Source: a virus
Direction: 5' to 3' (one strand)
Virus record (IMG/VR): IMGVR_UViG_3300001683_000005
Span: 1-45,157 of that record
DNA length: 45,157 nt
This document shows, in pieces, positions 9,911 through 45,157 of the stretch; position 1 is the stretch's first letter; each line of letters starts with the position of its first letter. A program made the position numbers and the translations under genes. The notes below the pieces were generated by a model. That model made no database searches, was not told where the DNA came from, and was given only the letters and a program-made list of their open reading frames with translations.

Positions 9911-9913
9911 GAG

Positions 9914-11776
9914 ATGGCAAAGATGCGCCGCCCAATAAGAGAAGGTTCAGCAGCCACGCCCCGCTATCGCACTCAGTTGTGGTCAGCGGAACAGGCGGAC
10001 CCACGGGCTGTGTATGAGGCGGCACAACGGCCCGGCATTGGTGTTGGCCTGAACAACCTGTTTAAGGGGGTGCAGAAGGCTGGCAAGAACATTGAGAAGC
10101 ACCAGGACCGCCAAGCGCAAAAATACATAGCCCTGGCAGAGGAAAAGATAACAGCCCACAGGAGGCGAGGCTTAGGGGAGGCCGCTGACGCATTCCTCAA
10201 CGCCGACATGATAGACCCAGCGAAGTATAGCGCTCAGATCGAAAAGGTTGTGGATGATTCGTATGCCTTGGTTCTCAATGATCCCTCTGCGCCGGAAGCC
10301 GCAAGGAAGTGGGCCAGAGACAATGCCGCCCTGACCAAGGTTAACCAGAAGGATGGGGCGAACGCTATGGTTCAGTCCTCCTGGCATCAGCGGGTTGGGA
10401 AGCAGGTGGCCGACTTTACCGAGAACCTTCGGTTAGGGAAGGACGGGCTTCCCAGGTCCGAGCCGCTAGACATGGATGAGTTGCGAGACTTTCTTGGACC
10501 CATGACTTTGGAATACGAGGCCGTTCTAGCATTGGACGATAAGGGGCCTGCGGCAGAGGAGTTCAAAACAACAGCCATGGCCAACATGAAGTCCGCTCTG
10601 GGTGTGTGGGTGAGAGAGTCAAATACCACTCTTTCTGGGGCGCTACTGAACTACAGAACGCTGCTTGTTCAGCAAGAGGCGGCGCAATACTTCACAGCGT
10701 TCACCGATTCCTCGGGACTTCCAGGGGGTTCTTACGCCATAGCCGTGGAAGAGTGGATAGCAGGGGACATCTCTGACGAGTCACTATTGGCATACGAGAC
10801 CGCTATAGCAGAGGATAGGGCCGATGCTGGAGAACGGCTCACCTCCACATACATGGGCTTGTTCAGCATGGCGCCAAAGGATATGGGGCTTGGGCTGGAT
10901 GCCGACATTGCTCGCGAGTTGGTTTCGCACATCACTGATTTGAGTGCCGACGCGATGGGGGACAAGGGCCACCCGTTCAGGACCATGATCGAGGACTTGC
11001 CGTTGGCGATGGTTGAAGCCATGGGTGTTAGTGGGAATGAAACTGGCACTCTCAACACCGACTTCTCTGTGCTAGATAAATCTGCTGGCCATCTAGGCGA
11101 TATTATAGCGATACTAGAACTGGGGCAGGGCACGAGCCTCTTCAATGGCGCCCTCTTAGGGGAGTTTCAAGAGGCTCAGTTGCAGGCAAGCAAACTCAAG
11201 AAAGAGATCACGGGCTTCGTGGAGTATTGCAACAAGCCCGATGGCGGACTGACGATGGAGGGCGCCCGATTTATCGGCAGATCAAAAGTGAGTCCAGCGG
11301 AGGGCGCCGCGCTGCGGGCCATGATTGGCGAGTCCGTTGAAGCCACTATGGCGGGCGGGTCTTCCGATACGCAGAAGGCGGAGAAGATTGCCACCTTCTT
11401 CCTGGGAATGGCTACCAAGAGCGGCTTCCCCCAGGCCGCCAGTGCGTATCTCCAGGACGCAATCAGTTCCTCCTTGAGAACCGGAGGTGGAGCGGGCAAC
11501 TTCAGGATGTACTGGTTGCCAGTCCTGTACGACATGGCGGTTGTTCGCGCTGAAGCAAGCGGCACAGAGACCCAAGGCGCAACTTCACGGGGCTTGGCGG
11601 CGTCTGGGGCGGTGCCGCATCCTATTCGCCCCGGTGTTTTCACGGGCGAACTGAAGGATGCGTATCGTTTGTTCCGCATTACTGTCAATGAAAACTCCAC
11701 TGGTAAGGTGCCTGATAGTGAGGAACTGTGGGGGTGGTGGCGGGATGCGTCGATTCAGGCGGGAGAACAACAATGA
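9914..11776 (+). CDS. Internal virion / ejection protein, 620 aa
   Basis: Long ORF 4 nt after the previous stop, within the gp14-gp16 syntenic block. I recognise no enzymatic motif. Confidence 0.55.
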   Translation: MAKMRRPIREGSAATPRYRTQLWSAEQADPRAVYEAAQRPGIGVGLNNLFKGVQKAGKNIEKHQDRQAQKYIALAEEKITAHRRRGLGEAADAFLNADMIDPAKYSAQIEKVVDDSYALVLNDPSAPEAARKWARDNAALTKVNQKDGANAMVQSSWHQRVGKQVADFTENLRLGKDGLPRSEPLDMDELRDFLGPMTLEYEAVLALDDKGPAAEEFKTTAMANMKSALGVWVRESNTTLSGALLNYRTLLVQQEAAQYFTAFTDSSGLPGGSYAIAVEEWIAGDISDESLLAYETAIAEDRADAGERLTSTYMGLFSMAPKDMGLGLDADIARELVSHITDLSADAMGDKGHPFRTMIEDLPLAMVEAMGVSGNETGTLNTDFSVLDKSAGHLGDIIAILELGQGTSLFNGALLGEFQEAQLQASKLKKEITGFVEYCNKPDGGLTMEGARFIGRSKVSPAEGAALRAMIGESVEATMAGGSSDTQKAEKIATFFLGMATKSGFPQAASAYLQDAISSSLRTGGGAGNFRMYWLPVLYDMAVVRAEASGTETQGATSRGLAASGAVPHPIRPGVFTGELKDAYRLFRITVNENSTGKVPDSEELWGWWRDASIQAGEQQ

Positions 11777-13806
11777 TTCCTGATCGGCGCGAAGAGCGTC
11801 TAGCGTCTGGGTATGCGGCTATGGGGTACAACACCACCGAGGAGGTGGAAGGGTTGTGGTCACTCTCCGGGTTCCAGGAGGAGTTGGCTACTCGTTTCTC
11901 GGGGGAGGCTGGGGGCTTTGAGGGGTGGGCACAATCTGAAGCGGGCTTCAATATAAACGAGGGCATGGTCTTTACCTCAGGTTTGCAAGATACACGCAGG
12001 ACCGCGAGCGAGGCGCTGCACAACTCTTCTGGTCTGCTTCGTAAGGAGGTTGAGAGGAATATGTCCACCTTCCTGTTCGATCACCCAAACGAGGCCAGCC
12101 AGATGCCGATGAGATTCAGAAACGAGGTGGAGAAGTGGTTCGAGAGAAGAGACTACACGATGGTGGGTAGGCAGAATGTTAGTATGGAAGCCCTCCTGGG
12201 ACAGAAGGGCAATCGGAACTTGCTTCCAGGCACCTACCAGGGAATCCAATACGAAAGCGGTGCAGTGCTGGAGATGGAGTTGGCCAGGGCATTACAGGCG
12301 TCGGGGAAGTATGACGGCACGACTGGAAAGATTTTCGACGATCTGACAGACGAGGGGAAGGGCAGGTGGGTTCTGGAGCAGGCAGGTGAGTACGGCCAGT
12401 TTAAACTGTTTGTCCTGCCACGAGATGGAGGACCATCAGGGGTGGTGAGGGACGCTGAAGGCAACGACATAAAGATAGACCTTAGAGATGTTGGCAATAC
12501 CGAGTATTTCCGACTGCATAAGATATGGTCCCATTGGGGCAGGCCCTCTGGCGGCGCCCTTGCCAACCTCTTAGACCCGCATCACCAGGGCAGGATGTCC
12601 GTAGACGCGTCCTCCCCCGATCACCAGTGGGCTACAGGGATGATGATAGAAGCGGCGGCTGCGGCGTTCTCTGGTCGTGATACTGAGTTTAGTTTCCCAG
12701 AGCGAGGCGTGGGCCAGCGTGGCGAACAGCCGTGGTTTGGCGCTCAACGCACCCTCCTTGAAAGAGATGTGATGGGTCGCGTGCAGGAGGGGGGGGTGGG
12801 CGAACTCATCAAGAAGGCAGTGAAGGGCGCGTGGTGGTTGGCCACCGTAGGTGGTCGCCAAGGAAGGAACTCAAAAGATTTCTTCAAGAACGCGCTTGAG
12901 GAGGCTCGCCAGATTGGGAGGGCGGGGAAGAGTGCGAAGGATTGGGGGACGGGGGGGGTGAAGAAGATCCTGGAGAAGGTGGCTGCGGCTGGAGGGGCGG
13001 GAGCATCTGCGAAGAAGATAGCGGGGGCGACCATCACGGGGATTGGTAAGATATTACTCGCCGCCACGAACCGATCAATAGGCGGATACCCCGGAAGGAG
13101 CGCCGTTCTCGGCACCGTTGCTTGGTGGCTTTACGATGCCTCCGGTGACAAAGAAGGGCTACATCCCGTCGAGATGACACGGGAGATGATGTATGCCGTC
13201 ATGGAGAGTCCCGAGGCGCAGGTACTGTTCAAGACGCCGATGGACCTCCTTGAGCCGTTGTTGAACAATGAGGAATCCTATCCAGGGTCTCAAGCATCAG
13301 ACTGGAAAGGCTCTCAAGATCCACCTGTCTCCAGTTACCAGCCGGGAGAGTCTGGGTTCTCTGATGTAGATGTAAAGATGATTACGGCAATAGTGGATGA
13401 GGTAGGGAGAATCCAGGCCGATGAATCATGGGGGGCGTGGTGGACAGATGTGCTCCTAACCGATAACGAGCAGACGCTGGCTGCCTCCATGACGGTCGTC
13501 AACGCGATGTTCCCTAGTCTAGAACGCGAAATGGACTTCGATCCAGCCGTCATGGAGGCGGTGTCTATGCTGATTTCGAGAACCCCGGAGGGTAGCGACA
13601 ACGCCAAACTTGTGTGGGGGATGCTCAAGGAGCATTGGGACAAGTCTGGCGAGGAGCAGGAGGGTTGGCTTTGGGACTCCACGCCTACCGGAGACGACCG
13701 CATGAAGTTGTATCGGCAGTATTTGAATGAAGATGAGCGGTGGGGGGATCTATCTCTGGCTGACAAGATGGAGGCTATGTTGGTTGGCCAGGGCTGGGGA
13801 TACTAA
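11773..13806 (+). CDS. Internal virion / ejection protein, 677 aa
   Basis: ATG at 11773 overlaps the upstream TGA (ATGA), so I prefer it to the track start at 11728. Contains a Gly/Ala/Lys-rich hydrophobic stretch (...KKIAGATITGIGKILLAATNRSIGG...LGTVAWWLY). Confidence 0.6.
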   Translation: MIPDRREERLASGYAAMGYNTTEEVEGLWSLSGFQEELATRFSGEAGGFEGWAQSEAGFNINEGMVFTSGLQDTRRTASEALHNSSGLLRKEVERNMSTFLFDHPNEASQMPMRFRNEVEKWFERRDYTMVGRQNVSMEALLGQKGNRNLLPGTYQGIQYESGAVLEMELARALQASGKYDGTTGKIFDDLTDEGKGRWVLEQAGEYGQFKLFVLPRDGGPSGVVRDAEGNDIKIDLRDVGNTEYFRLHKIWSHWGRPSGGALANLLDPHHQGRMSVDASSPDHQWATGMMIEAAAAAFSGRDTEFSFPERGVGQRGEQPWFGAQRTLLERDVMGRVQEGGVGELIKKAVKGAWWLATVGGRQGRNSKDFFKNALEEARQIGRAGKSAKDWGTGGVKKILEKVAAAGGAGASAKKIAGATITGIGKILLAATNRSIGGYPGRSAVLGTVAWWLYDASGDKEGLHPVEMTREMMYAVMESPEAQVLFKTPMDLLEPLLNNEESYPGSQASDWKGSQDPPVSSYQPGESGFSDVDVKMITAIVDEVGRIQADESWGAWWTDVLLTDNEQTLAASMTVVNAMFPSLEREMDFDPAVMEAVSMLISRTPEGSDNAKLVWGMLKEHWDKSGEEQEGWLWDSTPTGDDRMKLYRQYLNEDERWGDLSLADKMEAMLVGQGWGY

Positions 13807-16800
13807 TGGCGACGACCTATAAACAAGACCCCCCCAGAGCCTACCCAGAGGCGCTGTACTATAAAGGGACACATAAGCGCGGCAGAGACATTACTAGGTT
13901 CGGGGCAGCCTTCCGAGACATGAATCTGTTCTATGCTGGGTATCGCTATTACGACGACCACTACTCCTTCCACATCCCTCCGACCAAGGGATGGGGGGTG
14001 GAGCAAAACAAAGCCAACCTCTCGGCATACTACGCGCCCCATGTGAAGGCTTACCCTCGCCTGCTCTCTGCTCGTAGCAGGCAAGAGCAGGACCGGGTCA
14101 AGGATATTGTGCGGCGCTCAGTTGCCGATAGGGAAGTGCTGCACGACATGGGCTTTTTTGAGAGCCTCATGTTCTACCTCCCAGTGGGAATGACCAGCCC
14201 CGAGAACTGGGTGCCACTCTCTCGCGCCTTCCGGTTGGGCATGACTGGTTCGAGGGCGGGTGCTTTCAAGGTGGCTGCCGGAACTGGGGGCCGTGCGGTA
14301 ACGGAGGTTGAGAAGGCGGCTCTTATCGCCGCTCATAGAACTCACCCGGCAATCGTCTCGGCGGCGCACATTGGCGACGATATGACACACGGCCTCGCTC
14401 AAAACCTGCTTCAGAGAGTTGCTCTATCAAAGACCACGATAGGGCAGGCGGCTTTGGCCACTGGCCTGGAGGGGATGATAGCGGGGGCTGTTTCTGAGAT
14501 GGTGCTTCAGAAGACTCAACCGCTCCGCACCATGGAGGAAACCTGGATGAGCATCGTCGGAGGCGGCGTGTTCGGAGCCGTTCTCGGAGGAGGCTTCTAT
14601 GCCATAGGCAAGACTTATCGTGGGGCTTTGACCAGTTTGCTCGGACAAGAAGTTGCAGGTGATGTGGCGGTGGCATTGAGAGGCGAATTAGGCAACACGC
14701 TCAATGAGGTGGTTGAGGCGGGTGCAACAGGCTGGATAAGAAAGAGTGACAGAAAGGCGATGGACGAGGGCTTCACTCCCCCGGACGGGCACAGGGACGA
14801 GTACGACTATGTGGAGGTGGCGCCCGGCGCAGATACAAGGGCGGCTGCTGACGAAGCAGTGACGAGGGTTGTGGATGAGGAAAATGCAGCGAGGGCGGCG
14901 GAGGAGGAGGACGCAGCGAGGGCGGCGGATGACGATGACGCCCCAACTGAGTTAGCGCAGGCAGAAGAAGTTGCCCCGAGGGAGAGTGCGACCGAAGTTG
15001 CCACTAGCGATGCTGCCATTGCGAGTCCTGCTGAAGTCTTGATCTCGAAAAGGATGCATGAGGCCCTGCTCCGGCTCGATGCGGACACCAATACCGTAAG
15101 CAGTAAGGTGGCCAGACTGGTCGGCCTAGCCGAAGGCAACACCTTCTGGGGCCGACTCGTGGGTCGCTGGCTGCTCTGGAGTCCCAACACGAGAATGGGC
15201 CAAGAGATCACCGACTACGGGCGGCAAATGTATCAGTTGTTTTCTGGTGGAGCACTCACTCAAGAGGCAGGGTCCAGAGGCCACGGTGTTAATCGTCCTG
15301 GAGCGGACGCAGCGTCGCAGTACATGGAAGTGATGAACCTGAGGCTAGTGGGAGAACTTGCCAAACTCGCCAGGGAGGTCACGGCGTCGTCTGGCGTATC
15401 AGAGATAGACCTGCGCTCCCTCGCCCACTCTTATGCTGTGCGCTCTTATGAGGACGACGGTGTGACCCCTCGTGCCCTAGATTTGGCGGACGAGTTCCAT
15501 GAGAGTTCAGGGCTAGAGGGGGCCGAACGGTCGGTATACGACATAATCAATAAGATTGAAGACCCGACTGCTAGACAGGCGGCAGTTGACGGTGTCGAGC
15601 GTGCGGTCAAAGAGATATATGATCCGTTCATCGAGAACACCGGGAAACTCCTCAGGTCCATGGGCCTTCTGAAACTGGATTCCAGCCAGACCCGACGCAT
15701 GGCAGCCATGTATGTGGCAAGGATGTATGACGCCACGAAGATCAGGAAGCACTATGATGCGTTCTTTGCGTCTGTTCGTGCCGGGATCGAGGAATGGAAA
15801 GCCTCCGACGAGCCGTCGCTAGTAGCGTCGATTGAGGTTCAAAGGCAACTGGTTGCTGACCCCGGCTCGACAGCCTCTGACGCTGCGCACTTGGTCGTCC
15901 TGGAACAAAGGCTGGCTGATCTTATAGGCATAGACGACGCTCGTATTCACGCCGTGATCCGCAACATAATCAATGACCCGATCAACTCTGACATGGCCTC
16001 TAGCCGAATGGGCCCGCAGAACTCTTTACACGAGAGGGTCTTGTTGCTCCGTGATGAGTTTGTGGAGCCGTTCCTTGTTAAGGACATTGGGCTGGTCATG
16101 CAGACGATCACTAAGAGGCACATCCCGAAGGTGGCGATCTACCGATACCTCGCCTCCCCGGTGCAACTGGAACTCATGCAGCGCACGCTGGATCAGTATG
16201 AGGCTTTTGACGACATAATGAAGGCGCTGCGTGACCCTGCGACTGGGAAGATTCCAGACAACTTGCCCAGGGCCGAGGTGGAGAAAGTCACGAAAGCAAT
16301 GAATGACCTCTTCCAGTCAACTAACTTGTTGAGGCTTCATAATGGCTTGCGCCTCTTATCCGTGTTCAAGCCAGAAGTAGCAGGCCAAGCGGTCGAGGCC
16401 AATGGTCAAGCCGTTGATATGGTCGGTATCACTAACAGAATCAAAGACCTGCTGCAAGAACACAGAGACGCTAGTGACACGGCTCATAACCAGCAAGTTG
16501 TTGCCGACGGGTTTGAGGAGAAACTGCTGTCACTGGAGCAAGATATTCAAGACTCGATGAGGGACGCCATTGGGGGCACGACTCCGGCGGAATCCGTGCT
16601 GGATGCCGCCACACTAAGACAGCATCGTGGTTCTCTTATTGTGCAAATGCTTGACGACATGGTTGCCCGAGTGGACTCCGATGAGATTCGTGATGCTGGC
16701 GCTGAGGTGCAGGCAGCCGTGAGCACACTGACTGCCTTCGGAGATGAAGGCGAGAGAGCCCTCAGGGGCGAGGCATTTCTTAACGGCTTGAAGGCGGACA

Positions 16801-18650
16801 TAAGGGAAACGGTTGAGCGGGAGTTTGCCGCGGTCGTTGAGTCGTCCCGGACGCCGGATAACAACAACCAGGGCGGTGATGTTAGTACAAGGGTTGCCAA
16901 TATGGGCCCAGCCGCCTGGGTGCTACACCTCGCTAGGAACATCCATGATCCAGAGAAGTTGATATCAGAGGGCTGGGCGAGCCGAGAGATGATCGACTTG
17001 GTGGAGTCGAAGTTTCTCAAGGGTGGGACAGCCGAAGCGGGGGGGGCGAGCGTCACCAAGGGCGTCTTCCAGTTAGACCCGCATGGCCTCAAGGATGTTA
17101 TTAAAGGGTTCTCGGGCGCCGACTTTTCCACCGCTGTCCATGAGATTGGGCACGCCCTTCGGTTAAGGACTCTTACCAGGGCGAAGATTACTGATGGTCA
17201 TGCGGGAGATGTTACCCACCAGGATATGGACGACCTTGAGTTGTGGGCGAATGACGGCAGGGCTCTTGATCCGTTGGCTGAGGGCAAGGATCGAGTGTGG
17301 ACAACAGACATGGAGGAGAAGTTTGCCCGTGCGTTCGAGCAGTATGTCGCCGAGGGCAAGTTCCAACCGGGCGTCAGCGCTGGTGTGAAACGAGTCATGG
17401 AAGAGTTGATGAAGGCGATGAAGAGGGTGTATCAGGCATTCGCTGGCCGTTTCTCTACGCCGCTCGACCCGAGGGTGAAGACCGTGTTCGACAAACTCCT
17501 CTTATCAGACGAGGACATAGTGGCTGCGGCTGCCAGGGAGACCAACAACTCACCACACAGGCGGCTCACCGAATCTCAAAAGACTGACATTAAGAGAGTC
17601 TTCCACTTGTCGGACTCTGAAGCCGATGGCATCTACGAACTGTATGACGCCCTCAACCTTGACAAGGGCATGATAGTTTTCAAGGACAGTAGCGAGGTAG
17701 CCCCAGGCGGCCTGGAGCAGCGAACCGAAGGCAAGGGAGAGTTCCTTGCTGATAACAAGGTAGATCTTGCAGGGTGGGTGGACGAGTTCACAAACCACCC
17801 TGATTGGAAGGAACGATATGGCGAAGAAGTCATTGAGGGACGCATACGCACGAGCGGCTTCCGCGTTGAGTCTACAGCCGGAGTTCTCTTCAGGGACGGG
17901 CTTATCGAAACCGCCACAACCCACAGATTCGGGAAGGCCGTCGAGGTCAAAGACCAAGCCTTCTACCTCGACCCAGAGGCCAGAATCTACCTCGCCAGAG
18001 ACGCCACCGCAGGGCTCGTAGTCACTCCAGATAGAGACCTGATAAGCGTCCATAAGATGCCGGGCAGTGCCGCAGACATAAACGGGCTTCTCTCGCAGGC
18101 AAGCAAGTTCGCTGAAACACTCGACGGCTTCGATATCAATGGCCACCTGCCCACCCTCTATGGCAGGCATGGCTGGCGTCCGGTAGCCAGGGCGGAGTTC
18201 AATCCAGACTTCCGTCCTGAGGGCTGGGATATGAGGCCAATAGATGAGGGCGGCCTGGGGACTCCTGACATTGTTCTTATGGTGTATGACCCAACTGATG
18301 CGCTCAGGCTTCCGCACGCTGATTCGTTTAACGAGGTGAGGGATCAGGTTCCATTCTTATCAATGGATAAGTATGACGACGCAGTTGCCCTACAGACCCA
18401 GGCCAAGGAACTTATCCGAGAGTCTGTAGGGGGGCGCACAGGTGACGAACTCGACATACAGGCCAAGCAATATTTCCAGACCGAGAGCGAGGTGCCTCGT
18501 ATAGAGGGAGAAGACCATGGGTCGCTGGCTGCCCGTGCAGTACACAGCCCTGATAATCTTCTCAGAGTCTTCGGGACTCCCGACAACATAGAGGGTACTG
18601 GAACTCACCCTCGGTCAAGTCTGCCGAACACTCCGGTTCGAGATCTGTGA
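13806..18650 (+). CDS. Giant virion (ejection / polyvalent-type) protein, 1614 aa, with a zincin HEIGH metallopeptidase motif and a GNAT-like C-terminal region
   Basis: TAATG-coupled start. Hydrophobic segments occur near aa 220-270, and there is an acidic EENAARAAEEEDAARAADDDD tract. HEIGH at 17139-17153 is followed about 55 aa later by EEKFARAFEQYV, a candidate third-ligand Glu helix. 17850-18300 has a GNAT-like pattern (LISVHKMPGSAADINGLLSQA...LPTLYGRHGWRPVARAEF). Confidence 0.65.
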   Translation: MATTYKQDPPRAYPEALYYKGTHKRGRDITRFGAAFRDMNLFYAGYRYYDDHYSFHIPPTKGWGVEQNKANLSAYYAPHVKAYPRLLSARSRQEQDRVKDIVRRSVADREVLHDMGFFESLMFYLPVGMTSPENWVPLSRAFRLGMTGSRAGAFKVAAGTGGRAVTEVEKAALIAAHRTHPAIVSAAHIGDDMTHGLAQNLLQRVALSKTTIGQAALATGLEGMIAGAVSEMVLQKTQPLRTMEETWMSIVGGGVFGAVLGGGFYAIGKTYRGALTSLLGQEVAGDVAVALRGELGNTLNEVVEAGATGWIRKSDRKAMDEGFTPPDGHRDEYDYVEVAPGADTRAAADEAVTRVVDEENAARAAEEEDAARAADDDDAPTELAQAEEVAPRESATEVATSDAAIASPAEVLISKRMHEALLRLDADTNTVSSKVARLVGLAEGNTFWGRLVGRWLLWSPNTRMGQEITDYGRQMYQLFSGGALTQEAGSRGHGVNRPGADAASQYMEVMNLRLVGELAKLAREVTASSGVSEIDLRSLAHSYAVRSYEDDGVTPRALDLADEFHESSGLEGAERSVYDIINKIEDPTARQAAVDGVERAVKEIYDPFIENTGKLLRSMGLLKLDSSQTRRMAAMYVARMYDATKIRKHYDAFFASVRAGIEEWKASDEPSLVASIEVQRQLVADPGSTASDAAHLVVLEQRLADLIGIDDARIHAVIRNIINDPINSDMASSRMGPQNSLHERVLLLRDEFVEPFLVKDIGLVMQTITKRHIPKVAIYRYLASPVQLELMQRTLDQYEAFDDIMKALRDPATGKIPDNLPRAEVEKVTKAMNDLFQSTNLLRLHNGLRLLSVFKPEVAGQAVEANGQAVDMVGITNRIKDLLQEHRDASDTAHNQQVVADGFEEKLLSLEQDIQDSMRDAIGGTTPAESVLDAATLRQHRGSLIVQMLDDMVARVDSDEIRDAGAEVQAAVSTLTAFGDEGERALRGEAFLNGLKADIRETVEREFAAVVESSRTPDNNNQGGDVSTRVANMGPAAWVLHLARNIHDPEKLISEGWASREMIDLVESKFLKGGTAEAGGASVTKGVFQLDPHGLKDVIKGFSGADFSTAVHEIGHALRLRTLTRAKITDGHAGDVTHQDMDDLELWANDGRALDPLAEGKDRVWTTDMEEKFARAFEQYVAEGKFQPGVSAGVKRVMEELMKAMKRVYQAFAGRFSTPLDPRVKTVFDKLLLSDEDIVAAAARETNNSPHRRLTESQKTDIKRVFHLSDSEADGIYELYDALNLDKGMIVFKDSSEVAPGGLEQRTEGKGEFLADNKVDLAGWVDEFTNHPDWKERYGEEVIEGRIRTSGFRVESTAGVLFRDGLIETATTHRFGKAVEVKDQAFYLDPEARIYLARDATAGLVVTPDRDLISVHKMPGSAADINGLLSQASKFAETLDGFDINGHLPTLYGRHGWRPVARAEFNPDFRPEGWDMRPIDEGGLGTPDIVLMVYDPTDALRLPHADSFNEVRDQVPFLSMDKYDDAVALQTQAKELIRESVGGRTGDELDIQAKQYFQTESEVPRIEGEDHGSLAARAVHSPDNLLRVFGTPDNIEGTGTHPRSSLPNTPVRDL

Positions 18651-18858
18651 AGACGATTTAGAAGGGACCAGGGGGGAGGTTGTCCACCCGAACTTCCCCG
18701 GCACGACCGAGGAGTTTGGGCTGCCCACCACAGCCGGAGCCCTGCGAGAGGCCGGATACAAAGGCGCTGACAAGGAGAAGATTGAGCACTGGCACGAGAC
18801 TACCTATGCAACTAAGCCAGACGAACAAAGAAAGAAGTCGTTCTCGGTAGAAGACTCG

Positions 18859-21800
18859 ATGAAGTTGCAAGATGAGATTCTCGTCCCCCATGAGAAGGTG
18901 CTGCGCTACATTGATGGAGTGGACGAGGAGCAAGTGCAAGTATCTGCGATGGGGTACGCCCCGTTGGTGGCAAGGAAGATCCATAACGAACAGGCAATAA
19001 GTTATGGCGAGATCACCCGCCTCATTGATAATAGGCTCGACTTCCTTATGTTCCAAGGGCTGCATAGCCAGAGAGAAGAGATCGAAGGCTACTTGCAATG
19101 GGCGATACGGCAGCATCCTAATGGCAAGCCGTTCCTTGTCGGTGATGATATCAGTCTTGGGGTTCGTGGGAACGGCGGGGAGGCCGTGCATCCTGAGAGT
19201 TTCATAAACGCGCACTCTATCACCCGAAACAACGGCATTGCAATCACTGACGAAAACCTTCTGCGAGCAGACCTAGACCACGAAGTGTTCCGTAAGGATT
19301 ATATTGAGCAAGCAATGTCTGACTTTGATTATGTTATCAAGCAGGTTGGGGAGGGAATGTCTGAGATAGACAGCGTCGCCACGGTCAAGGTGCTCAATGA
19401 CCTCAAAGTAGAGGTACGGGCGGTGCTGGAGAACACGCCGAAAGTGCAAGGTGGACTGCTCAGTTCGCTTGCGTCTGATATGTCCAACTCGTTGATTTAC
19501 AACAGGACGAGAGAGTCCCGAGTGTACAAGGCGAGCAGAGACCTAGCAGCAAAGAAGAAAAGTGGCGCCCCTCTCACCGACGCCGAGTCTGCAAGGGATG
19601 TGTGGAGCCGTAGCGTATATAAGGAGTCAGGCGCCAAAGTGAGGCCGGAGATCGGCGAGCCACCGCAAGGCCCCCTGGAAAACCTCCCTTGGTACAACCT
19701 GACTGGGCTAATCGAAAAGCAGTCATGGAAGGGTCACGAAGAAGGCGGACTGGTCGCTCGGGCTATCATGGATCTCATTGGGGATGGCTATCATAACCCG
19801 GAAAGCCTCGACATTCGCCTGGGGCAGTTCGAGGACAATGTCCGCTTGAGTAAGATATGGGCCAAGCAGGATGCCCTGTTCAATCTTGAACTCGAAATAA
19901 ACAAAACAGATCCACTCCTCACTAAGTCAGCCAGGAAGAAGGGAGAGGCTGCGGTCAGGAAGGCTTGGAAAGAATGGGGCGCCAAGTTCCATAAGGAGCA
20001 GTGGGAGCCCGTATTCGGCAAGGGTAGCAGGGTGGACCCCCACGGGTTCGGGACTGTAAAAACTGGCCCTGATCACCACGGCTCGACCCTCAGAGAGTGG
20101 GAGCACGATGGTGGCCTGATCGACCTGGAGAACATTAGAGACATCGTGCCCGGTCTGCTTGAGGAGTATGGTCAATATCAAGCGCAACTAAAATCAGCGC
20201 TTCGAGTCCTTTATCCGTCAGGTCTGATTCCGGTTGCTCGGTGGCGAGACTTCCTAAGCAACGCACGAAGCGCAGAGCATGACTTCAGATACTCCACTGC
20301 TGGGACTCGCTCACCAGACACTGCGATATCCTTGAAGGCAAAACAGGGCGCCATGCTCAGTATGGGTGACAGGTCCATGTTGTCCGCTACGATTCAGCAT
20401 CCTGAGGCGTTCCATAAGACGACCATCGGTGCTCCGCCCCCTTACGGAGTTCGTGGAGCCCCCGAGGGGTCGGCCACACATGATGTAGCGTACCATGAGA
20501 CTCAGAACATGGTCCTCACCAATGAGGGCGATAAGATCATGAAGGTGACCAAGGGCAGGAAGGTCTTGAAGGAGGTCAGAAAGGACGGCGACACATTCGA
20601 GCAGCCCTCGGATGCCTGGATGGCCAAAACAGAGGGCACACAGCCGGGCGTCGCTGTCCATGAGATCGTTCATATTGATGACATCTTGTTCATGGGTGCC
20701 GCCCGAGAGGGCGAGGTCCATGTCAAGAGGAACGCCCTCCTCTATAACAAGCATCGCACAGTCGCAGATCTATACCAGACCAGCGAGGTCATCCAGAAGA
20801 TCATGGATGAGGTTGAATCTCTTATTGACGGCAAGAAGGTCACCCCGAACGCTGCGGTGGCAAAGGTGCTGGTAAGGCTTGGCTGGGCTGTGCCGATGGG
20901 ACAGGCCAATCAGACGGGGCTCAAGCAGGTCTCGCCCAGGCAACTGAAATCAATGCTGCTCGCTCTGCAAGCGAACAGTAAGAGGATGCTCTTCCACGAC
21001 AAGGCGGACGAGGCTGCCCGATTCTGGTACGAAGATTCCTCTGCCGGAATCCTTGAGGCGTTCCAAGGAGACCTACTTCAGGCGTCGATGTTCATTGATG
21101 TCCTGGCGATCACCTCGGCTAACACCAACCCAAAGCAAAACCTCGGTAACGCATTAGACACCGTGGCCAAGATAATGAACCTGCCAAACCTCAAGTCGGG
21201 CGTGACAAACTTGTTCCCGTCCCATGCGTTCCCTCTCACCTTGAAGCCTAAGTTGGAGAAGATTGTTCTTGGATATGACGCCGCTGGACGAGCGGTTCGG
21301 CTCGGCGACCAGGACTGGTCTATCAGGCTCAGTTCAGGGAAGCGCAACGCCTTCAAGACCGCTTCCTTTGCTCGCACGATTCACCGGGCGCTCCAGTACG
21401 ATATCTTCAGAGAGGAAATGCAAGGTCACTGGCAGTCAGAACTGCACGATGTGGTGGCGGATGTTTGGATGTTCCGCCACTTCCAGTTTGGCAAGACCGG
21501 AGCGCAGGATACTCCAGCAAAGTTCAATGAGCGTCTAAGGCGGTTCCAGACTCACATGGAGACTCTGGGCGCCAAGGGTGACTCGAAGGAGTTGCGTAAA
21601 GCCAGGAATGCGGAGCGTAAGTCCAAGAAGCACCTGAACTATTCGGATTCCACTCGCTCCCTTGATAGTGGCAAAGACTACAAGTTCATGACTGACATGA
21701 TTGAGATGCTGACCGACGAACTCAATGAAGACGCTTATCGTGGAGCGACGGACTGGAAACCATGGCAAGTACAGGCGATGTTGTGGACAACGCATCGCTT

Positions 21801-24800
21801 CATCGAGGCGGGCGAGTCTGACCCCATGGTTTACCACAACCTTCTTGAAGAGGGGTATCCGTGGAGGGCGAATCATCCGTTCACGCCGGGCCCCTCCTCC
21901 ACGCACTTGAATGGCCTGGAGGCCCTGCCGGACAATATAAGGGTGCAGATCGCTGCGCTGCGTAACCGTGCCACCTCTGACTTCCAGACTGACTCTTATG
22001 TGATTGCAACAAACAAAGGCGACACTGGCCACGCAACTCTCGACCTCGCTCTCAAGGAAGTTGGAGGCGAGGCCCACGCCCGGTCAACTGAGGCTGTGCG
22101 TCGTGTTGTGTCCGAAGAGGCGAAAGTGATAAGAGTGGACGGTGCGGTCACTCCCAAGGGGAACCGTGGTCACGCTACCCAGGTCGTCGAGTTGCGGACA
22201 GGTAACGACGACAGGCTACGGGCGGCTGGTGCGAGAATGGGACTGGCTGGTGGCCACGATAATGTCCTCACCTTCCGTGTGCGTCAGTCTGGTAAACAAG
22301 CGCTTCAGATCGTCGAGTTTGATGAGTCGCTCAGTGCTACTCAGATCAAGAACTTGCTGAAGCGACATAAGATGGGCAAGCACTCGATCACAAAGGGCGA
22401 AGGCGACGGGTATCGTGTCTTCATTTACGATGACACTTACGGCAAGGGGGCGCAGTTGCGCTCGCCTGTGCTCATGAAAGTTAGGGAGTGGGTCAGTAAT
22501 GGGAAAATCAAAAAGCACGAAGAGGTCAGGGGGACAGCGGAAAGGGTCGGGGCAGACGACGGCTCCAGCAAAGAAGTCATCGCCGCCTCTTATCGAGACA
22601 CCCTCAGAGGAGTTGACGAGCGAGGGAGCGAAGCCCACAAAGCCCTCGGAACGAGCGTTCCTTATAGTTATTCCCTCGTAAGGGCTACGGGTAGCAGCGC
22701 ACGGAGTGGGCATAACGCTCCGGGGGCAGACGCTGTTCTCCTCGAACTTGGGCTGCCGGGGCTCTCGTCGGTCACGCCTGGGGTGACTGGTACCACCCGT
22801 CTCTTCTTACCGAATCAGGTCATTCCGGCAGCGGTCAGAAGGGAGGCGGAGGAGTGGATCACTAAGACCAACCTGGAGCAGGGCGGAAAGCCAATCTCGA
22901 AGGCGATAATCAAAGCGCTCGCAGGAGTGCTCAACGACGGCGTGCACACGGTCAATGCTGGCAACCAATGGGCAGCAGCCACCGCTGCGCTCTACAGGCT
23001 CGACTCGATTACCTGGAGCCGGATCGTCCCGCCGGATCTGACGAACTCAAAACTGCACAATGGCTATACACTCATGTTGCCCGAAGGTGCGGTGTGGGAC
23101 AGGGACTCGCTCGCTGATCTCCGTGCTCATTTCGAGACGCTCGGCCCGCTCGCTAAGAGGCTTCGGTTTGAGCAGCAGAGCCCGGAGGGTCTTGGGATCT
23201 ATATCACCACGGAGAGAGGGGGGCTGAACTGGTTCCCTGACTCGAAGACAGGGAGCGGTCAGCAGCGCACGGAGATTGACGCTAACCTCTTTCCAAGACT
23301 CCACGAGGCGACGCTCACCGTTAAGAGGTCGCTGGCCGAGTGGAACAAGGGGCGCCCAGAAGCAGGGATGGTCGAGTACGAAGGCTTCACTTATGTTGGT
23401 AACAGATTAGAAAACGATTGGAGTGTGAATCCAAATGGAGAAGGATATCTCGACGCCCCGTGGAAGGGCCCTGGTGGAAAGGCTGTCAAAGCAAGGGTTC
23501 AGGCAGTTGTCAGGAAACTCTTACCCAGAATGGATGCCGCCGACGAAGTTGCCGCAGCCCGGTACGGACTCCAAGTCAACCCAGAACTTCTCAAGTCCTA
23601 CCGAACCCCAGACCACTCCTCCTCCATCGAAGCCGGGCGGGGAACAAACACCTTCTCAAGGGGCGCCTCCGACCCCTCCGTCCGAGGGCGGGAGCCAGAA
23701 TACTTCCAGCACAACGAAAGGCGACAGATAAACTCAGACCTCGAAGCGCTTGGCCTCGGCGGCCTGTTCGACAGCGAGACCATTGCTGGTAACCGCCCGG
23801 AGATCGAGGCTGCACTTGGGAAGATAAGAGAGGGGCGAGCCCGGATCGAAGCGGCAACACGGGCTGCCGGGGGCGAGACCGACCCCAATCAAATGCTGGA
23901 GAGCCTTATCAGTGAGGCTATTGGCCGGGCTGAACAGACTGGTGACCTGCCAGAGATACCGGGCTTCCCCAAACTGACTCAAGGCGTGCAGGATCTCATG
24001 GCAGCGAGAGGCCAGGAGGGCGCCGTCAGGGCCGCTAGGGGGGCTCTGGATGAGGCCGACCCTGGTGGTGCCCCCGCCAGAACGGAGGTCGCAGGGGCCC
24101 AGGGTGGCCTTCGTGCCGCTCGTCACGGGGTCGCCCGAGCAGAAAGCGAGTTCGATTCAGCAACCCAGGAACTTCGTGCTATTTCCGCTGACCTGGGGGT
24201 GCCGACTGACGCCTCCTCCAGGGGGCGGCCAGCCGATGGCTACGAGCCGCACTCTTATGCTTATCCAAAACGGAGAGGGTCGTCGGGTGAGGAGATGGAG
24301 GCCATGGCAGGGAGGGCCAGAGCGGCCACCGAACAAGTCCGCTCGGAAACCAGTGGCGACGCTCTCTCTCTTGAGCCGCACCTTGCTGTTATCAGGCGAG
24401 CGTATGAGAAGAAGGTGGCAGCGGCCAGAACAGCCGGGAACGATGCGGAGGTTAAGAGGCTGGAGAAGCGCTTCCACCAGACCGCAATGGACTTGCAGGC
24501 CATGAAGGATCGAATCCTCAACACTCACGGCATCAATACTGACGCTGTGGGCTACGGAATGAGACTCGCTAAGGCGGCGAAGGACTTCAACTACATTCGA
24601 TTCATGGGGGGCGTGACCCTGAGTTCGATTCCCGACCTCGCAATGGGGATCTCCGTGGCTGGTCTCCGCCCCTACCTCACGGCCTGGGCCAAAATGCTAA
24701 AGGCCGAGATCCTCAACGACGATGTTGCGAGAGCCGACATCGCTAAACTGATCTACGCTGCGGAGACCGTGCTAGGTGAGGAGCGGGTAAGAAAACTCTA

Positions 24801-25890
24801 CTTCCTTGACGACAATCCAATGCAGATCGAGCAGACGAAAGCCGAGAAGGGCTTGGAGTGGAGCGCCCGCAAGTTCGGTAAGTGGTCAGGAATCCAGTAT
24901 TGGAATGCAGTGAACAAGGCGGTGGCTGCCACGGCAATCCAGAGCAGGGTGATCGAGATAAGCCGGAAGGTGCGTGCAGGAACCGCAAGCGCTTTTGAAC
25001 TGGAGATGCTCGGCCAGTTCGGGATCGACACGGAAATGGCCACACTCGTCGCCCGAGTGCACGGAGTAGTCGGAGAGACTGGAGTGGACCTGTTTGGTGG
25101 AGACTTCTACCACAGCCGAGTGGATCTCTGGGACGGGCCGATTGACGGGCTAAGAGCAGACGAAGTTGCGTTCCTGAAGGAGCAATACTACATGGCGATC
25201 ATGCAGGCGGTGAACCGGACAATCGTCACCCCGAATGCTGGTGACCTGCCTCTTATCGCAACCTCTTCCGCTATAGGGAAACTCCTCTTCCAGTTCAAGT
25301 CCTTCAGTTTCGCAGCCACTAACAGCGTGCTCATCTCTGGGCTCCAGCGAGGACTGGAGTATGGAGATATCTCCCAGGTGATCCTCTTGGCCGGGCTGTC
25401 GTCTCTTGGAGGGTTCGTCTACGCAGGCAAGGAGTGGCTCGGTGGCCGTGACCCATTCCGCTACGAAAATGACATCTCCAAGTTCATTGTCGAGGGCATG
25501 GACAGAGGCGGTGGCCTTGGAATCCTGAGTGAGACGAATGCTATCTTCGAGAAGACCTTCGGCCTTGGCCTGTCCCAGTTCGCTGACAGTGGACCCTTGT
25601 CACGGTACTCTTCTCGTAACAAAATGGACGCCTTGATGGGCCCCACCTTTGGAACGGCGAAGGATATGCTGACTATCGCTGGATCATTCCCTAAGATGTT
25701 CACTGCCGACGATGTCAGCGGATACGAGATAGATGCGGCCCGGAGAATGTTCGCATTCCAGAACTTGATCCAGACACGGCTCGCTCTGGATGTTGGGCCG
25801 TCTCTTATCCAGGGCGGGGACGACTTCTTTGCTAACTTCAAGCCTCTACACCGTCGTATGGCGGGCGTTGCTGGGATCGGTGAGGAATAA
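18859..25890 (+). CDS. Giant virion (ejection / polyvalent-type) protein, at least 2343 aa; the 5' end may extend upstream (see findings)
   Basis: The first ATG/GTG/TTG is at 18859 and has no good SD. The same frame is open and coding-like back to 18592. AVHEIVH lies at 20653-20673. C-terminal hydrophobic segments (e.g. VTLSSIPDLAMGISVAGL, VILLAGLSSLGGFVYAG) are typical of ejection or membrane-insertion proteins. Confidence 0.65.
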   Translation: MKLQDEILVPHEKVLRYIDGVDEEQVQVSAMGYAPLVARKIHNEQAISYGEITRLIDNRLDFLMFQGLHSQREEIEGYLQWAIRQHPNGKPFLVGDDISLGVRGNGGEAVHPESFINAHSITRNNGIAITDENLLRADLDHEVFRKDYIEQAMSDFDYVIKQVGEGMSEIDSVATVKVLNDLKVEVRAVLENTPKVQGGLLSSLASDMSNSLIYNRTRESRVYKASRDLAAKKKSGAPLTDAESARDVWSRSVYKESGAKVRPEIGEPPQGPLENLPWYNLTGLIEKQSWKGHEEGGLVARAIMDLIGDGYHNPESLDIRLGQFEDNVRLSKIWAKQDALFNLELEINKTDPLLTKSARKKGEAAVRKAWKEWGAKFHKEQWEPVFGKGSRVDPHGFGTVKTGPDHHGSTLREWEHDGGLIDLENIRDIVPGLLEEYGQYQAQLKSALRVLYPSGLIPVARWRDFLSNARSAEHDFRYSTAGTRSPDTAISLKAKQGAMLSMGDRSMLSATIQHPEAFHKTTIGAPPPYGVRGAPEGSATHDVAYHETQNMVLTNEGDKIMKVTKGRKVLKEVRKDGDTFEQPSDAWMAKTEGTQPGVAVHEIVHIDDILFMGAAREGEVHVKRNALLYNKHRTVADLYQTSEVIQKIMDEVESLIDGKKVTPNAAVAKVLVRLGWAVPMGQANQTGLKQVSPRQLKSMLLALQANSKRMLFHDKADEAARFWYEDSSAGILEAFQGDLLQASMFIDVLAITSANTNPKQNLGNALDTVAKIMNLPNLKSGVTNLFPSHAFPLTLKPKLEKIVLGYDAAGRAVRLGDQDWSIRLSSGKRNAFKTASFARTIHRALQYDIFREEMQGHWQSELHDVVADVWMFRHFQFGKTGAQDTPAKFNERLRRFQTHMETLGAKGDSKELRKARNAERKSKKHLNYSDSTRSLDSGKDYKFMTDMIEMLTDELNEDAYRGATDWKPWQVQAMLWTTHRFIEAGESDPMVYHNLLEEGYPWRANHPFTPGPSSTHLNGLEALPDNIRVQIAALRNRATSDFQTDSYVIATNKGDTGHATLDLALKEVGGEAHARSTEAVRRVVSEEAKVIRVDGAVTPKGNRGHATQVVELRTGNDDRLRAAGARMGLAGGHDNVLTFRVRQSGKQALQIVEFDESLSATQIKNLLKRHKMGKHSITKGEGDGYRVFIYDDTYGKGAQLRSPVLMKVREWVSNGKIKKHEEVRGTAERVGADDGSSKEVIAASYRDTLRGVDERGSEAHKALGTSVPYSYSLVRATGSSARSGHNAPGADAVLLELGLPGLSSVTPGVTGTTRLFLPNQVIPAAVRREAEEWITKTNLEQGGKPISKAIIKALAGVLNDGVHTVNAGNQWAAATAALYRLDSITWSRIVPPDLTNSKLHNGYTLMLPEGAVWDRDSLADLRAHFETLGPLAKRLRFEQQSPEGLGIYITTERGGLNWFPDSKTGSGQQRTEIDANLFPRLHEATLTVKRSLAEWNKGRPEAGMVEYEGFTYVGNRLENDWSVNPNGEGYLDAPWKGPGGKAVKARVQAVVRKLLPRMDAADEVAAARYGLQVNPELLKSYRTPDHSSSIEAGRGTNTFSRGASDPSVRGREPEYFQHNERRQINSDLEALGLGGLFDSETIAGNRPEIEAALGKIREGRARIEAATRAAGGETDPNQMLESLISEAIGRAEQTGDLPEIPGFPKLTQGVQDLMAARGQEGAVRAARGALDEADPGGAPARTEVAGAQGGLRAARHGVARAESEFDSATQELRAISADLGVPTDASSRGRPADGYEPHSYAYPKRRGSSGEEMEAMAGRARAATEQVRSETSGDALSLEPHLAVIRRAYEKKVAAARTAGNDAEVKRLEKRFHQTAMDLQAMKDRILNTHGINTDAVGYGMRLAKAAKDFNYIRFMGGVTLSSIPDLAMGISVAGLRPYLTAWAKMLKAEILNDDVARADIAKLIYAAETVLGEERVRKLYFLDDNPMQIEQTKAEKGLEWSARKFGKWSGIQYWNAVNKAVAATAIQSRVIEISRKVRAGTASAFELEMLGQFGIDTEMATLVARVHGVVGETGVDLFGGDFYHSRVDLWDGPIDGLRADEVAFLKEQYYMAIMQAVNRTIVTPNAGDLPLIATSSAIGKLLFQFKSFSFAATNSVLISGLQRGLEYGDISQVILLAGLSSLGGFVYAGKEWLGGRDPFRYENDISKFIVEGMDRGGGLGILSETNAIFEKTFGLGLSQFADSGPLSRYSSRNKMDALMGPTFGTAKDMLTIAGSFPKMFTADDVSGYEIDAARRMFAFQNLIQTRLALDVGPSLIQGGDDFFANFKPLHRRMAGVAGIGEE

Positions 25891-25893
25891 GAG

Positions 25894-26202
25894 ATGGACG
25901 ATATCGCTTATCAGGTAGGTGTTGGTGGGTTGGTTGCCGTGCTACTGGTAAGGGAGATCCTCGGATTCCTGAAGCACCGGAACGGCAGTGGCCACTCTCC
26001 GGCGAGCCATGGTGACACCGCCGTCTCGCAGGCTCTGCAACTGGAGCGGTGGAAGGCAGTGGAAGAGGCTATACGGGCCAGCACGCACACTATTCGTAAC
26101 AATACCCAGGTGTTAGACTCGCTTGCGCACCATATAGTGGAGAGCAGACAGGAACTCAAAGAGGCCATGGTGGAGTGCCGTGCCTCGAAGCGCACAGGAT
26201 AA
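25894..26202 (+). CDS. Small membrane protein (102 aa): N-terminal TMD plus helical C-terminus; holin or i-spanin-like
   Basis: ATG 4 nt after the giant ORF stop, preceded by GAGGAATAAGAG. TMD VGVGGLVAVLLVREILGFL is followed by a charged helical region. Confidence 0.55.
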   Translation: MDDIAYQVGVGGLVAVLLVREILGFLKHRNGSGHSPASHGDTAVSQALQLERWKAVEEAIRASTHTIRNNTQVLDSLAHHIVESRQELKEAMVECRASKRTG

Positions 26203-45066: not shown

Positions 45067-45157
45067 AGCCAAGGGAAGCCCGGTGTCGGACAACTTCTCG
45101 TAGTTTGATAAAACAATAAACTACGCAAGGAATCTGCCACCATGGCTATTACCAACT
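45067..45157. repeat. Terminal direct repeat, right copy (identical to 1-91)
   Basis: Same 91 nt as bases 1-91, compared base by base. Confidence 0.95.

Follow-up and report, generated by a model that had tools for sequence, protein, structure and literature searches.

The closest known counterpart of the giant gene considered here is that for the T7 gp16-type internal virion protein D (phrog_342, 'internal virion protein with endolysin domain'). In both cases the gene is the last and largest of its cluster and the genome carries a T7-type portal (PF12236), capsid and terminase, and the family profile matches both ends of the intact giant protein; unlike the T7-type proteins, which have ~1,300 aa, those considered here have 4,034-4,354 aa, making them three times longer, and ~3,000 aa of unrelated modules stand between the matching ends. 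Two last-in-cluster internal virion proteins of temperate or marine podoviruses, Escherichia phage TL-2011b gp38 (1004 aa) and the 'putative internal virion protein 1' of Vibrio phage CKB-S2 (1059 aa), share the C-terminal ~450 aa at 27-33% identity (E down to 1e-54), and the gene order is likewise tail, tail, small and then large internal virion proteins. Their proteins are of ~1,000 aa, with the preceding large protein encoded by a separate gene, whereas here a single chain has ~3,500 aa ahead of the shared domain. A broader comparison is with the polyvalent proteins of phages, as defined in Iyer et al. 2017 (PMC5512222), which combine several recognisable effector or enzymatic domains in one polypeptide and among which zincin-type peptidase modules are common (PMC5512222). 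The likeness lies in a very large multi-module protein encoded among the virion/late genes of a portal-terminase phage, in modules gained and lost between relatives, and in two HExxH motifs like those of zincin-type peptidase modules. The difference is that no domain of the giant protein is significant against Pfam, so that membership would be by architecture and context only.

Two cases of recoding also bear comparison. At the +1 site of prfB (RF2), CUU-U permits the P-site tRNA to re-pair in the +1 frame. The present locus shares with prfB the +1 relation between two frames and a UGA in frame where the shift would occur, but it has no CUU-U and no Shine-Dalgarno (SD) sequence 3 nt upstream, and no other copy of the gene shows the arrangement. 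In Alteromonas virus vB_AspP-H4/4, a -1 frameshift was proposed to join the endolysin and internal virion protein genes (PMC5658483), a recoding claim that likewise concerns the internal-virion-protein cluster in a marine podovirus. That shift is of the -1 type at a slippery sequence in overlapping genes, whereas the present locus lacks a slippery sequence and is broken by a private deletion.

The gene resides in the genome of a circular podovirus of ~45 kb from deep-sea metagenomes, represented here by the window, the whole stretch of 45,157 nucleotides that was analysed (IMG/VR record IMGVR_UViG_3300001683_000005). Two long ORFs, ORF1 and ORF2, are separated in it by a coding-like frame with no start codon, which a sequence-only reading had put down, in its headline, to +1 recoding into a protein of ~4,027 aa.

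The giant gene and its product

ORF1 and ORF2 are very probably the halves of one 4,034-codon gene, which profile matches and gene position predict to encode a giant T7-gp16-type internal virion (ejection) protein. The N-terminus of ORF1 (aa 31-436) matches positions 228-487 of the phrog_342 profile (E 6e-08), ORF2 matches positions 781-1215 (E 2e-33) as well as phrog_16310 (7e-80), and an intact relative matches phrog_342 (1235 positions) in two stretches (E 1e-46), which argues that both ends belong to one protein family. The C-terminal ~450 aa of ORF2 form a widely conserved gp16-like domain, and it is to this domain that TL-2011b gp38 and the CKB-S2 protein are homologous. Profile positions 1-228, the lysozyme/transglycosylase part, were unmatched, and Pfam gave no hit for an N-terminal lytic transglycosylase/endolysin domain; neither half, nor an intact relative, had a significant hit among Pfam, NCBIfam or PDB sequences. 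The gene closes the internal-virion-protein cluster, which comes after the tail-tube genes. The morphogenesis module is T7-like: portal (PF12236), terminase, capsid, tail proteins (phrog_394 and phrog_376) and the small internal virion protein (phrog_308) stand in canonical order. The giant protein is presumably packaged and injected.

The HExxH motifs are HEIGH at 17139-17153 and HEIVH at 20659-20673. When a construct spanning the junction was used as query in a word-indexed protein search, only two distant proteins came up, with hits in the HExxH region of ORF1 and in a second ORF1 module (aa ~1392-1494); because they match modules inside ORF1 and not the junction, they were unusable as an outgroup. 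Among relatives a 948-nt in-frame module is present or absent, an indel polymorphism that lies 160 nt from the break. A gp16-like ejection protein of 4,000-4,350 aa whose modules come and go would represent virion-protein expansion of a known kind.

The start-less stretch and the missing 20 nt

The geometry that the sequence-only reading described holds in every coordinate, as does its translation. ORF1 (13806-18650, 1614 aa, ending in TGA 18648-50) is followed after 208 nt by ATG 18859, the first ATG/GTG/TTG of ORF2, and the ORF2 frame, which is +1 relative to ORF1, extends upstream of that ATG without a stop for 89 codons, as far as TAG 18589-91 (Table 1). The composition is gene-like, as had been claimed: GC at codon positions 1/2/3 is 0.60/0.44/0.67 in the 70-codon bridge, 0.63/0.43/0.64 in ORF1 and 0.61/0.44/0.66 in ORF2, and purines occupy 0.70 of first codon positions in the bridge. 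The start-free leader of 89 codons is the longest among 38 stop-to-stop frames of at least 200 codons in the window, the runner-up having 51, and given that 6.9% of codons in this phage's genes are ATG/GTG/TTG, the probability of meeting no start in 89 codons is ~0.002. In a phmmer comparison with the intact 4277-aa relative, homology in the downstream frame begins at query residue 19-20, which is the deletion junction; across 18592-18648 the conserved frame is the upstream (ORF1) one. Disorder-promoting, linker-like composition around the bridge reaches 0.66-0.76, versus a protein mean of 0.57.

Table 1. Features of the locus, as read with a deletion in a single gene (window coordinates)
Feature	Position	Strand	Reading
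Giant-gene 5' part, codons 1-1614 (ORF1)	13806..18647	+	Appears as an ORF of its own (1614 aa) solely through the deletion
Downstream-frame codons over the ORF1 tail (19)	18592..18648	+	Open by chance; not homologous coding in this frame
Deletion junction	18647..18648	+	20 nt absent that every other copy carries
Premature TGA	18648..18650	+	Normal GTT GAA GAC (V E D) read one base out of register, T/GA A
Bridge, 70 orphaned codons	18649..18858	+	Ordinary in-frame giant-gene coding sequence, colinear with all relatives; no start codon left
Giant-gene 3' part, 2343 codons and stop (ORF2)	18859..25890	+	In the intact gene ATG 18859 encodes an internal Met

When every fetched locus was scanned, the site was intact in nine independent contigs and deleted in none, and the deletion allele is seen in one contig in ten. 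Each of the nine others reads through as one continuous ORF, which answers whether orthologues have one ORF or two. Single giant ORFs occur in three divergent relatives, of 4354 aa (L001), 4309 aa (L002) and 4277 aa (L013/P0003); ORF1 is 93.5% identical at the amino acid level to residues 36-1567 of the L001 protein, and ORF2 is 94.8% identical to its residues 1871-4354. Six further contigs, 99.84-100% identical to the window, are copies of the same phage, and all carry the 20 nt. They come from five NCBI metagenome assemblies (JAPOGJ010001725, JAPOGN010001102, JAPOGK010001204, JAPOGL010001908 and JAPOGO010000738) and from Logan SRR3577362 (contig SRR3577362_128371, Guaymas Basin). The called gene has 4034 aa in five of these six; the exception, a 3618-aa call in JAPOGL, was considered as a natural truncation and rejected, because the gene is interrupted there by a scaffold gap of 100 N, one flank of which is duplicated over 55 nt. 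JAPOGK has a nonsense SNP in its YqaJ gene, another disruptive polymorphism in this population. Elsewhere, the junction region had no blastn or tblastn match among INPHARED phages, the 1614-aa, 2343-aa and 692-aa products drew no record in exact look-ups, no relative was found in the genome contig collection, and further IMG/VR scans yielded nothing beyond the same two contigs.

The missing 20 nt are TTTTGGAGGACCGGGCGAGT, in place of which the L002/L006 contig has TTTTGGAAGACCGGAAAAGT. The window reads GAGATCTG up to 18647 and TGAAGAC from 18648 onward, and relatives read PVRDLFWRTGRVEDDLEG at the site of the premature TGA. Re-insertion of the 20 nt into the window yields a 4034-aa ORF that is one residue off that of JAPOGK. 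In a three-way alignment over 9.4 kb the 20-nt gap is the sole frame-breaker, all other indels being multiples of three (3, 6, 9, 12, 15 and 48). Microhomology at the junction amounts to 1 nt; a 3-nt GTT microhomology was discarded, since the two GTT copies are 19 nt apart, not 20.

Together, these comparisons lead us to conclude, with a probability of roughly 0.93, that the start-less stretch is the middle of one giant gene broken by a 20-nt deletion, with no recoding, whichever origin the deletion has. The loss of 20 bp between 18647 and 18648 in this one sequence shifts everything downstream into the +1 frame, creates an immediate TGA, and leaves 70 normal codons without a start, which then appear as a coding-like open frame. 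Because the 20 nt are lost in this sequence only, the break represents a frameshift lesion or an assembly fault and not programmed recoding. Two proposals of the sequence-only reading survive in part: the bridge is real coding sequence of one protein of about 4,000 aa, although the intact form has 4,034 aa and not 4,027, and an indel is indeed present, but of 20 nt and not of 1. For annotation, the two ORFs become one 4,034-codon gene with a frameshift, to be marked as disrupted or corrected, and not a recoding candidate.

Origin of the deletion

We lean slightly towards the deletion being a real, very recent private allele in the sequenced DNA. The window is without any other indel relative to the near-identical copies, a 91-nt terminal overlap suggests de Bruijn assembly, which would be unable to invent junction k-mers, and the YqaJ nonsense SNP shows that disruptive polymorphism exists elsewhere in the population. 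If the allele is real, the gene would be broken, giving a 1614-aa N-terminal fragment and a C-terminal half that would be initiated independently and weakly at best. If the allele were real and dominant in its sample, such a crippling lesion would be unexpected in a gene whose frame every other copy conserves, which leaves room for a fission that is tolerated.

That the deletion is a library or assembly artefact is nearly as probable, in which case the true genome would have the intact 4,034-aa ORF. The closest copy, the Logan contig, differs from the window by the 20-nt gap alone, with 0 mismatches in 13,976 nt; a compensating start is lacking, and the lineage-specific N/S of ORF2 is the same as that of an intact relative (40/26 versus 33/26), although this measure does not separate a recent lesion from an artefact. 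A 20-nt loss at 1 nt of microhomology is not what classic replication slippage would leave, nor does it resemble a typical assembler error.

Split translation, frameshifting and chance

Within the branch in which the deletion is real, and as a share of that branch rather than an addition to it, the phage might be viable with two polypeptides, the N-terminal fragment ending at the TGA and the 2343-aa C-terminal half being initiated on its own, at AUG 18859 or at a near-cognate bridge codon, e.g. CTG 18721 or ATT 18781. We regard this tolerated fission as unlikely. The break does sit in a linker-like, disorder-promoting segment close to the polymorphic 948-nt module, and cultured relatives manage with a ~1,000-aa protein that has only the C-terminal domain. 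The region of AUG 18859 is A-rich (40% versus 26%) and weakly structured (-10.3 kcal/mol, in the top 10% of internal AUGs), and GAGGAG lies 6 nt upstream of CTG 18721. Against this, 208 nt pass without a canonical start, and the SD at ATG 18859, already judged poor by the sequence-only reading, is indeed weak (-3.0 kcal/mol with a generic anti-SD). The SD-like strings are codons of the intact gene, identical in relatives that do not need them; the AAGGAG that had been offered in support of initiation at ATT 18781 encodes K-E in the intact gene and is not shared by L002, and that proposal finds no support. Nor does any homologue start at the equivalent of Met 18859, a residue missing from L002/L006 through a 9-nt in-frame deletion; this is the opposite of the uniform start at that Met by which the sequence-only reading would have been refuted.

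The state of ORF2, with neither extra stops nor a nonsynonymous excess, would suit a functional half-protein. But the allele occurs in one contig of ten and an otherwise identical copy is intact, which leaves no time for selection to have acted, so that the N/S test is uninformative here. Moreover, the two gp16-like profile ends normally lie on one chain. The corresponding scenario, a giant ejection protein caught mid-fission whose 2,343-aa half arises from a fortuitous, SD-less, A-rich and unstructured AUG 18859 and whose halves are packaged separately, is in our judgement improbable to the same degree.

Programmed +1 frameshifting, whether at CUG-UGA-A or at another point of the 57 nt in which both frames are open, would produce the ~4,027-aa fusion. 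In its favour are the +1 relation of the downstream frame, the stop codon in the A site, a classic pause for +1 shifts, and the fusion itself, which would be colinear with the intact homologues but for 7 residues. Nine other copies, six of them of the same phage, encode the protein unshifted, and the supposed site is the scar of a private deletion. The tRNA-Leu (CAG) on CUG cannot re-pair on UGU, unlike that at CUU-U in prfB. No SD-like stimulator was found upstream of the stop (anti-SD pairing within 18600-18645 reaches -3.3 kcal/mol at best), no homopolymer precedes the stop, and the RNA fold at 18600-18760 is no better than that of shuffled sequences (z-score -0.45). We hold a programmed shift to be very improbable, and as an evolved mechanism it is, as judged from the comparative data, refuted; the headline claim of recoding is not supported. 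The idea that the 89 codons are open at random, in G+C-rich DNA separating two genes, is refuted and of negligible probability: chance accounts for its first 19 codons, but the remaining 70 are homologous, in frame, to coding sequence in nine other contigs, with gene-like codon statistics and a leader length extreme for the window.

A deletion in a single gene remains the preferred reading, and two minor observations concern the same region. A minus-strand ORF at 18658-19215 (185 aa) was rejected as a shadow ORF, as L006 interrupts its frame with a stop and its translation is hydrophobic and of low complexity. The near-identical assemblies were recoverable by exact-protein look-ups of small neighbouring genes, a route by which such questions can be settled without reads.

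A start-less frame inside one giant gene

The first of two large ORFs in the window (ORF1, 13806-18650, 1614 aa) ends at a TGA at 18648-18650, and the second (ORF2, 18859-25890, 2343 aa) follows after a spacing of 208 nt, in the +1 frame relative to ORF1. Upstream of its ATG at 18859 the frame of ORF2 stays open for 89 codons, back to a TAG at 18589-18591; spacing, frame relation, open stretch and translation are all as the sequence-only reading gave them. The 70 codons between the ORFs (the bridge, 18649-18858) have a GC content of 0.60/0.44/0.67 at codon positions 1/2/3, indistinguishable from ORF1 (0.63/0.43/0.64) and ORF2 (0.61/0.44/0.66), and a position-1 purine fraction of 0.70, whereas neither alternative frame of this stretch has a gene-like composition; the bridge was thus rightly described as coding-like. 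Chance had been kept as an alternative, but the 89-codon leader lacking ATG, GTG or TTG is the longest among the window's 38 long open frames (the runner-up has 51 codons), and its probability is ~0.002 given the start-codon density in this phage's genes. In light of the gene-like composition and the extreme leader length, the start-less open frame is a real observation and not a chance one.

When IMG/VR was scanned for the peptide pattern of the bridge plus the first 530 aa of ORF2, two contigs of divergent relatives came up, L001 and L002, in both of which the region lies inside one unbroken ORF (4258-17322, 4354 aa, and 4321-17250, 4309 aa, respectively). The aligned DNA is nearly identical over ~190 nt 5' of the window stop and ~90-97% identical 3' of it, and exactly between window positions 18647 and 18648 both relatives have 20 additional nt (TTTTGGAGGACCGGGCGAGT in L001, TTTTGGAAGACCGGAAAAGT in L002). 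They read across the junction as …PVRDLFWRTGRVEDDLEGTRGEVV…, and the window TGA is the normal …GTT GAA GAC… read out of register. phmmer, run exhaustively against 1.84 billion representatives, gave one close relative, P0003 (4277 aa), to which the downstream frame aligns from query residue 19, the deletion point. P0003 is encoded on contig L013 (Ga0255982_100491), where, the 20 nt aside, no base differs from the window over at least the 60 nt before and the 84 nt after the junction. Rather than starting at an equivalent of Met-18859, an arrangement considered in the sequence-only reading, the homologues have one ORF across the site; that Met is absent from the divergent contigs L002 and L006 through a 9-nt in-frame deletion, so the codon is not a conserved start.

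Small proteins encoded nearby (Erf, the 102-aa product of 25894-26202 and the 891-aa tail protein), looked up by exact sequence, led to six contigs at 99.84-100% identity to the window: JAPOGJ010001725, JAPOGN010001102 (45,294 nt), JAPOGK010001204 (44,619 nt), JAPOGL010001908 and JAPOGO010000738 (45,685 nt) from NCBI, and SRR3577362_128371 (35,821 nt) from Logan, SRR3577362 being a Guaymas Basin deep-sea hydrothermal metagenome (PMC8851854). All six have the 20 nt, and in five the gene caller gives a giant-gene product of 4034 aa, that is, 1614 + 7 + 70 + 2343; the call of 3618 aa in JAPOGL is due solely to a 100-N scaffold gap. Over 16-20 kb the window differs from these contigs by 2-4 substitutions and the single gap, and from the Logan contig, over 13,976 nt, by the 20-nt gap alone. 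At two positions (18140 T, 24309 A) the window departs from the JAPOG and SRR216074xx contigs; both alleles are synonymous third-position states found in the divergent relatives, the former also in the Logan contig. With the 20 nt restored, the window has a 4034-aa ORF one residue off the JAPOGK product.

As read from these alignments, the start-less frame comes from the middle of one 4,034-codon gene that a 20-nt deletion, private to this sequence, has broken: loss of the 20 nt between 18647 and 18648 exposes the out-of-register TGA and orphans the bridge. The earlier expectation of a coding bridge and a ~4,000-aa product agrees with the 4034 aa encoded by intact copies. Its indel alternative was right in kind, the size being 20 nt and not 1; among all fetched loci scanned, the junction is intact in nine independent contigs and deleted in none.

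Origin of the deletion and signals at the junction

Alignment of the window with the divergent contigs L005 and L006 over 9.4 kb shows that the other indels are of 3, 6, 9, 12, 15 and 48 nt, all multiples of three, and that the 20-nt gap is the only one to break the frame. No other indel separates the window from its near-identical copies, which argues that it is not a noisy assembly and favors a real allele in the sequenced DNA, to which we give a probability of about 55%. In the same direction, a 20-nt loss is atypical of base-calling error, the terminal overlap of the contig suggests a de Bruijn assembler, which would output only junction k-mers occurring in reads, and a disruptive polymorphism, an apparent nonsense SNP splitting the YqaJ-like exonuclease gene in JAPOGK, occurs in the population. 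An artefact is somewhat less probable; it, or at most a transient minority allele, is favored by the occurrence of the deleted copy in one of ten assemblies, by a closest copy identical apart from the gap, by the frame being kept in every other copy and by the lack of anything that compensates for the lesion. The lineage-specific N/S of ORF2, 40/26 in the window vs 33/26 in the intact L005 lineage, points the same way, giving no sign of relaxed constraint. The verdict on the open frame is unchanged whether the deletion is real or artefactual.

A viable gene fission in progress is improbable. The AUG at 18859 has a weak SD (-3.0 kcal/mol), and its surroundings are A-rich and weakly structured (-10.3 kcal/mol, top 10% of 96 internal AUGs), so that some fortuitous initiation there is conceivable, with no indication of design. 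Non-canonical initiation, proposed earlier for the ATT at 18781, is not supported: the AAGGAG before it is not conserved in L002, and all three SD-like strings of the bridge are codons of the intact gene that also occur in relatives not needing them. Nor is the programmed +1 recoding proposed with it, since relatives read through and at the would-be site, CUG-UGA-A, re-pairing of the P-site tRNA-Leu on UGU is impossible, whereas the CUU-U of the prfB +1 site permits re-pairing. No SD-like sequence lies 5' of the ORF1 stop (best -3.3 kcal/mol), and 18600-18760 shows nothing unusual in its RNA fold (z = -0.45); the absence of a homopolymer upstream of the stop also rules out transcriptional slippage.

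A 185-aa GTG ORF antisense to the junction (18658-19215, minus strand) was rejected as a shadow ORF, its translation being hydrophobic and of low complexity, with a stop in L006.

Identity of the giant gene

As a contig the window closes into a circle, its first 91 nt overlapping exactly with its last (1-91 identical to 45067-45157), and has 45,066 nt of unique sequence. Structural genes cross the circular junction, with terminase, portal and scaffold at the window end and capsid at its start. The module comprises terminase, a T7-type portal (PF12236), scaffold/protease, capsid, the tail proteins phrog_394 and phrog_376 and the small internal virion protein phrog_308, followed by two large unassigned proteins and the giant gene. 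The profile phrog_342, 'internal virion protein with endolysin domain' of the T7 gp16 kind, matches ORF1 at residues 31-436 (profile 228-487) and ORF2 at its C-terminus (profile 781-1215); the two ORFs thus carry both ends of one family, which the intact L013 protein matches in two stretches (E 1e-46). The C-terminal ~450 aa have homologues at 27-33% identity in 60 cultured phages, where the domain ends a ~1,000-aa protein closing the internal-virion-protein cluster (e.g. TL-2011b gp38 and Vibrio CKB-S2 'internal virion protein 1'). Nothing else was found for the giant protein in sequence searches of Pfam, NCBIfam and PDB.

Each half of the protein has an HExxH motif, neither with a Pfam domain at threshold; the surroundings of HEIGH have distant homologues (P0001 and P0002, 25-32% identity) and a phrog_9880 match. 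The motifs may mark zincin-like peptidase modules, such as phage polyvalent proteins contain; those proteins are virion-packaged (Iyer et al.), and the giant protein resembles them, by architecture only, in these motifs and in modules that vary between relatives. The deletion site lies in a linker-like stretch (disorder-promoting residues 0.66-0.76 vs a mean of 0.57).

Features of the window at and beyond the junction
Feature	Position	Strand	Remark
HExxH motif HEIGH	17139-17153		5' half of giant protein
SD-like AGGGGGGAGG	18670		in bridge
SD-like GAGGAG	6 nt before CTG 18721		in bridge
SD-like AAGGAG	3 nt before ATT 18781		in bridge
HExxH motif HEIVH	20659-20673		3' half of giant protein
Erf annealase	27862-28821
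YqaJ/RecE-like exonuclease	29078-30025
VWA-domain protein	33030-34484	minus	adjoins MoxR-type ATPase
MoxR-type AAA+ ATPase (PF20030 bpMoxR)	34574-36142	minus

Variable modules and other genes

The giant gene of the divergent relatives (L001/L005, L002/L006 and L013) contains an additional in-frame module of ~948 nt (316 codons), which lies 160 nt 5' of the 20-nt site, is absent from the window (junction 18460-18487; L005 9045-9993) and its near-identical copies, and has no Pfam match. In L005 it is flanked by an imperfect direct repeat of ~22 nt, AGGCCA(A/G)(G/A)CAATATTT(T/C)CAG, and the window at this junction reads like a recombinant between the two repeat copies. A mosaic block (window 10108-14122 vs L005 1288-4707) covers genes 9914-11776 (620 aa) and 11728-13806 (692 aa) and the first ~31 residues of the giant protein, with no DNA similarity to the corresponding L001/L005 region; of the 620-aa protein, the N-terminal ~100 aa alone are common to both, at 63% identity.

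The 824-aa tail protein gene (3877-6351) contains degenerate tandem repeats at ~4478-5210, with self-matches at offsets of 69, 138, 207 … 414 nt (69-75% identity; unit ~23 aa). The JAPOGK and JAPOGO scaffolds have 100-N gaps exactly there, which indicates a region hard to assemble. An acidic EENAARAA/EEDAARAA repeat in the giant gene (~14875-14929) differs in repeat number in L013; at this repeat the JAPOGL scaffold (L027 9862-9961) has a 100-N gap and a 55-nt duplicated flank, and an apparent second natural disruption of the gene was dismissed as a scaffolding artefact.

The early or non-structural arm contains the MoxR-type ATPase, the VWA-domain protein, the Erf annealase, the YqaJ/RecE-like exonuclease and HTH_3 regulators; the window ORFs scanned showed no DNA polymerase, RNA polymerase or integrase. 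In JAPOGK010001204 (L017/L037), a genome otherwise 99.85% identical, a G-to-A change at window 29593 coincides with a call of the 315-aa YqaJ-like exonuclease gene as 144 + 168 aa and resembles a nonsense polymorphism. Most genes of the window's phage have no cultured relative in INPHARED. At least three separate data sets, the JAPOG*/SRR2160748x series, JGI 3300033151 and Guaymas Basin SRR3577362, yielded the same genotype on assembly (at least 99.8% identity; loci L014-L043); this is thus a widespread and strikingly conserved deep-sea phage.
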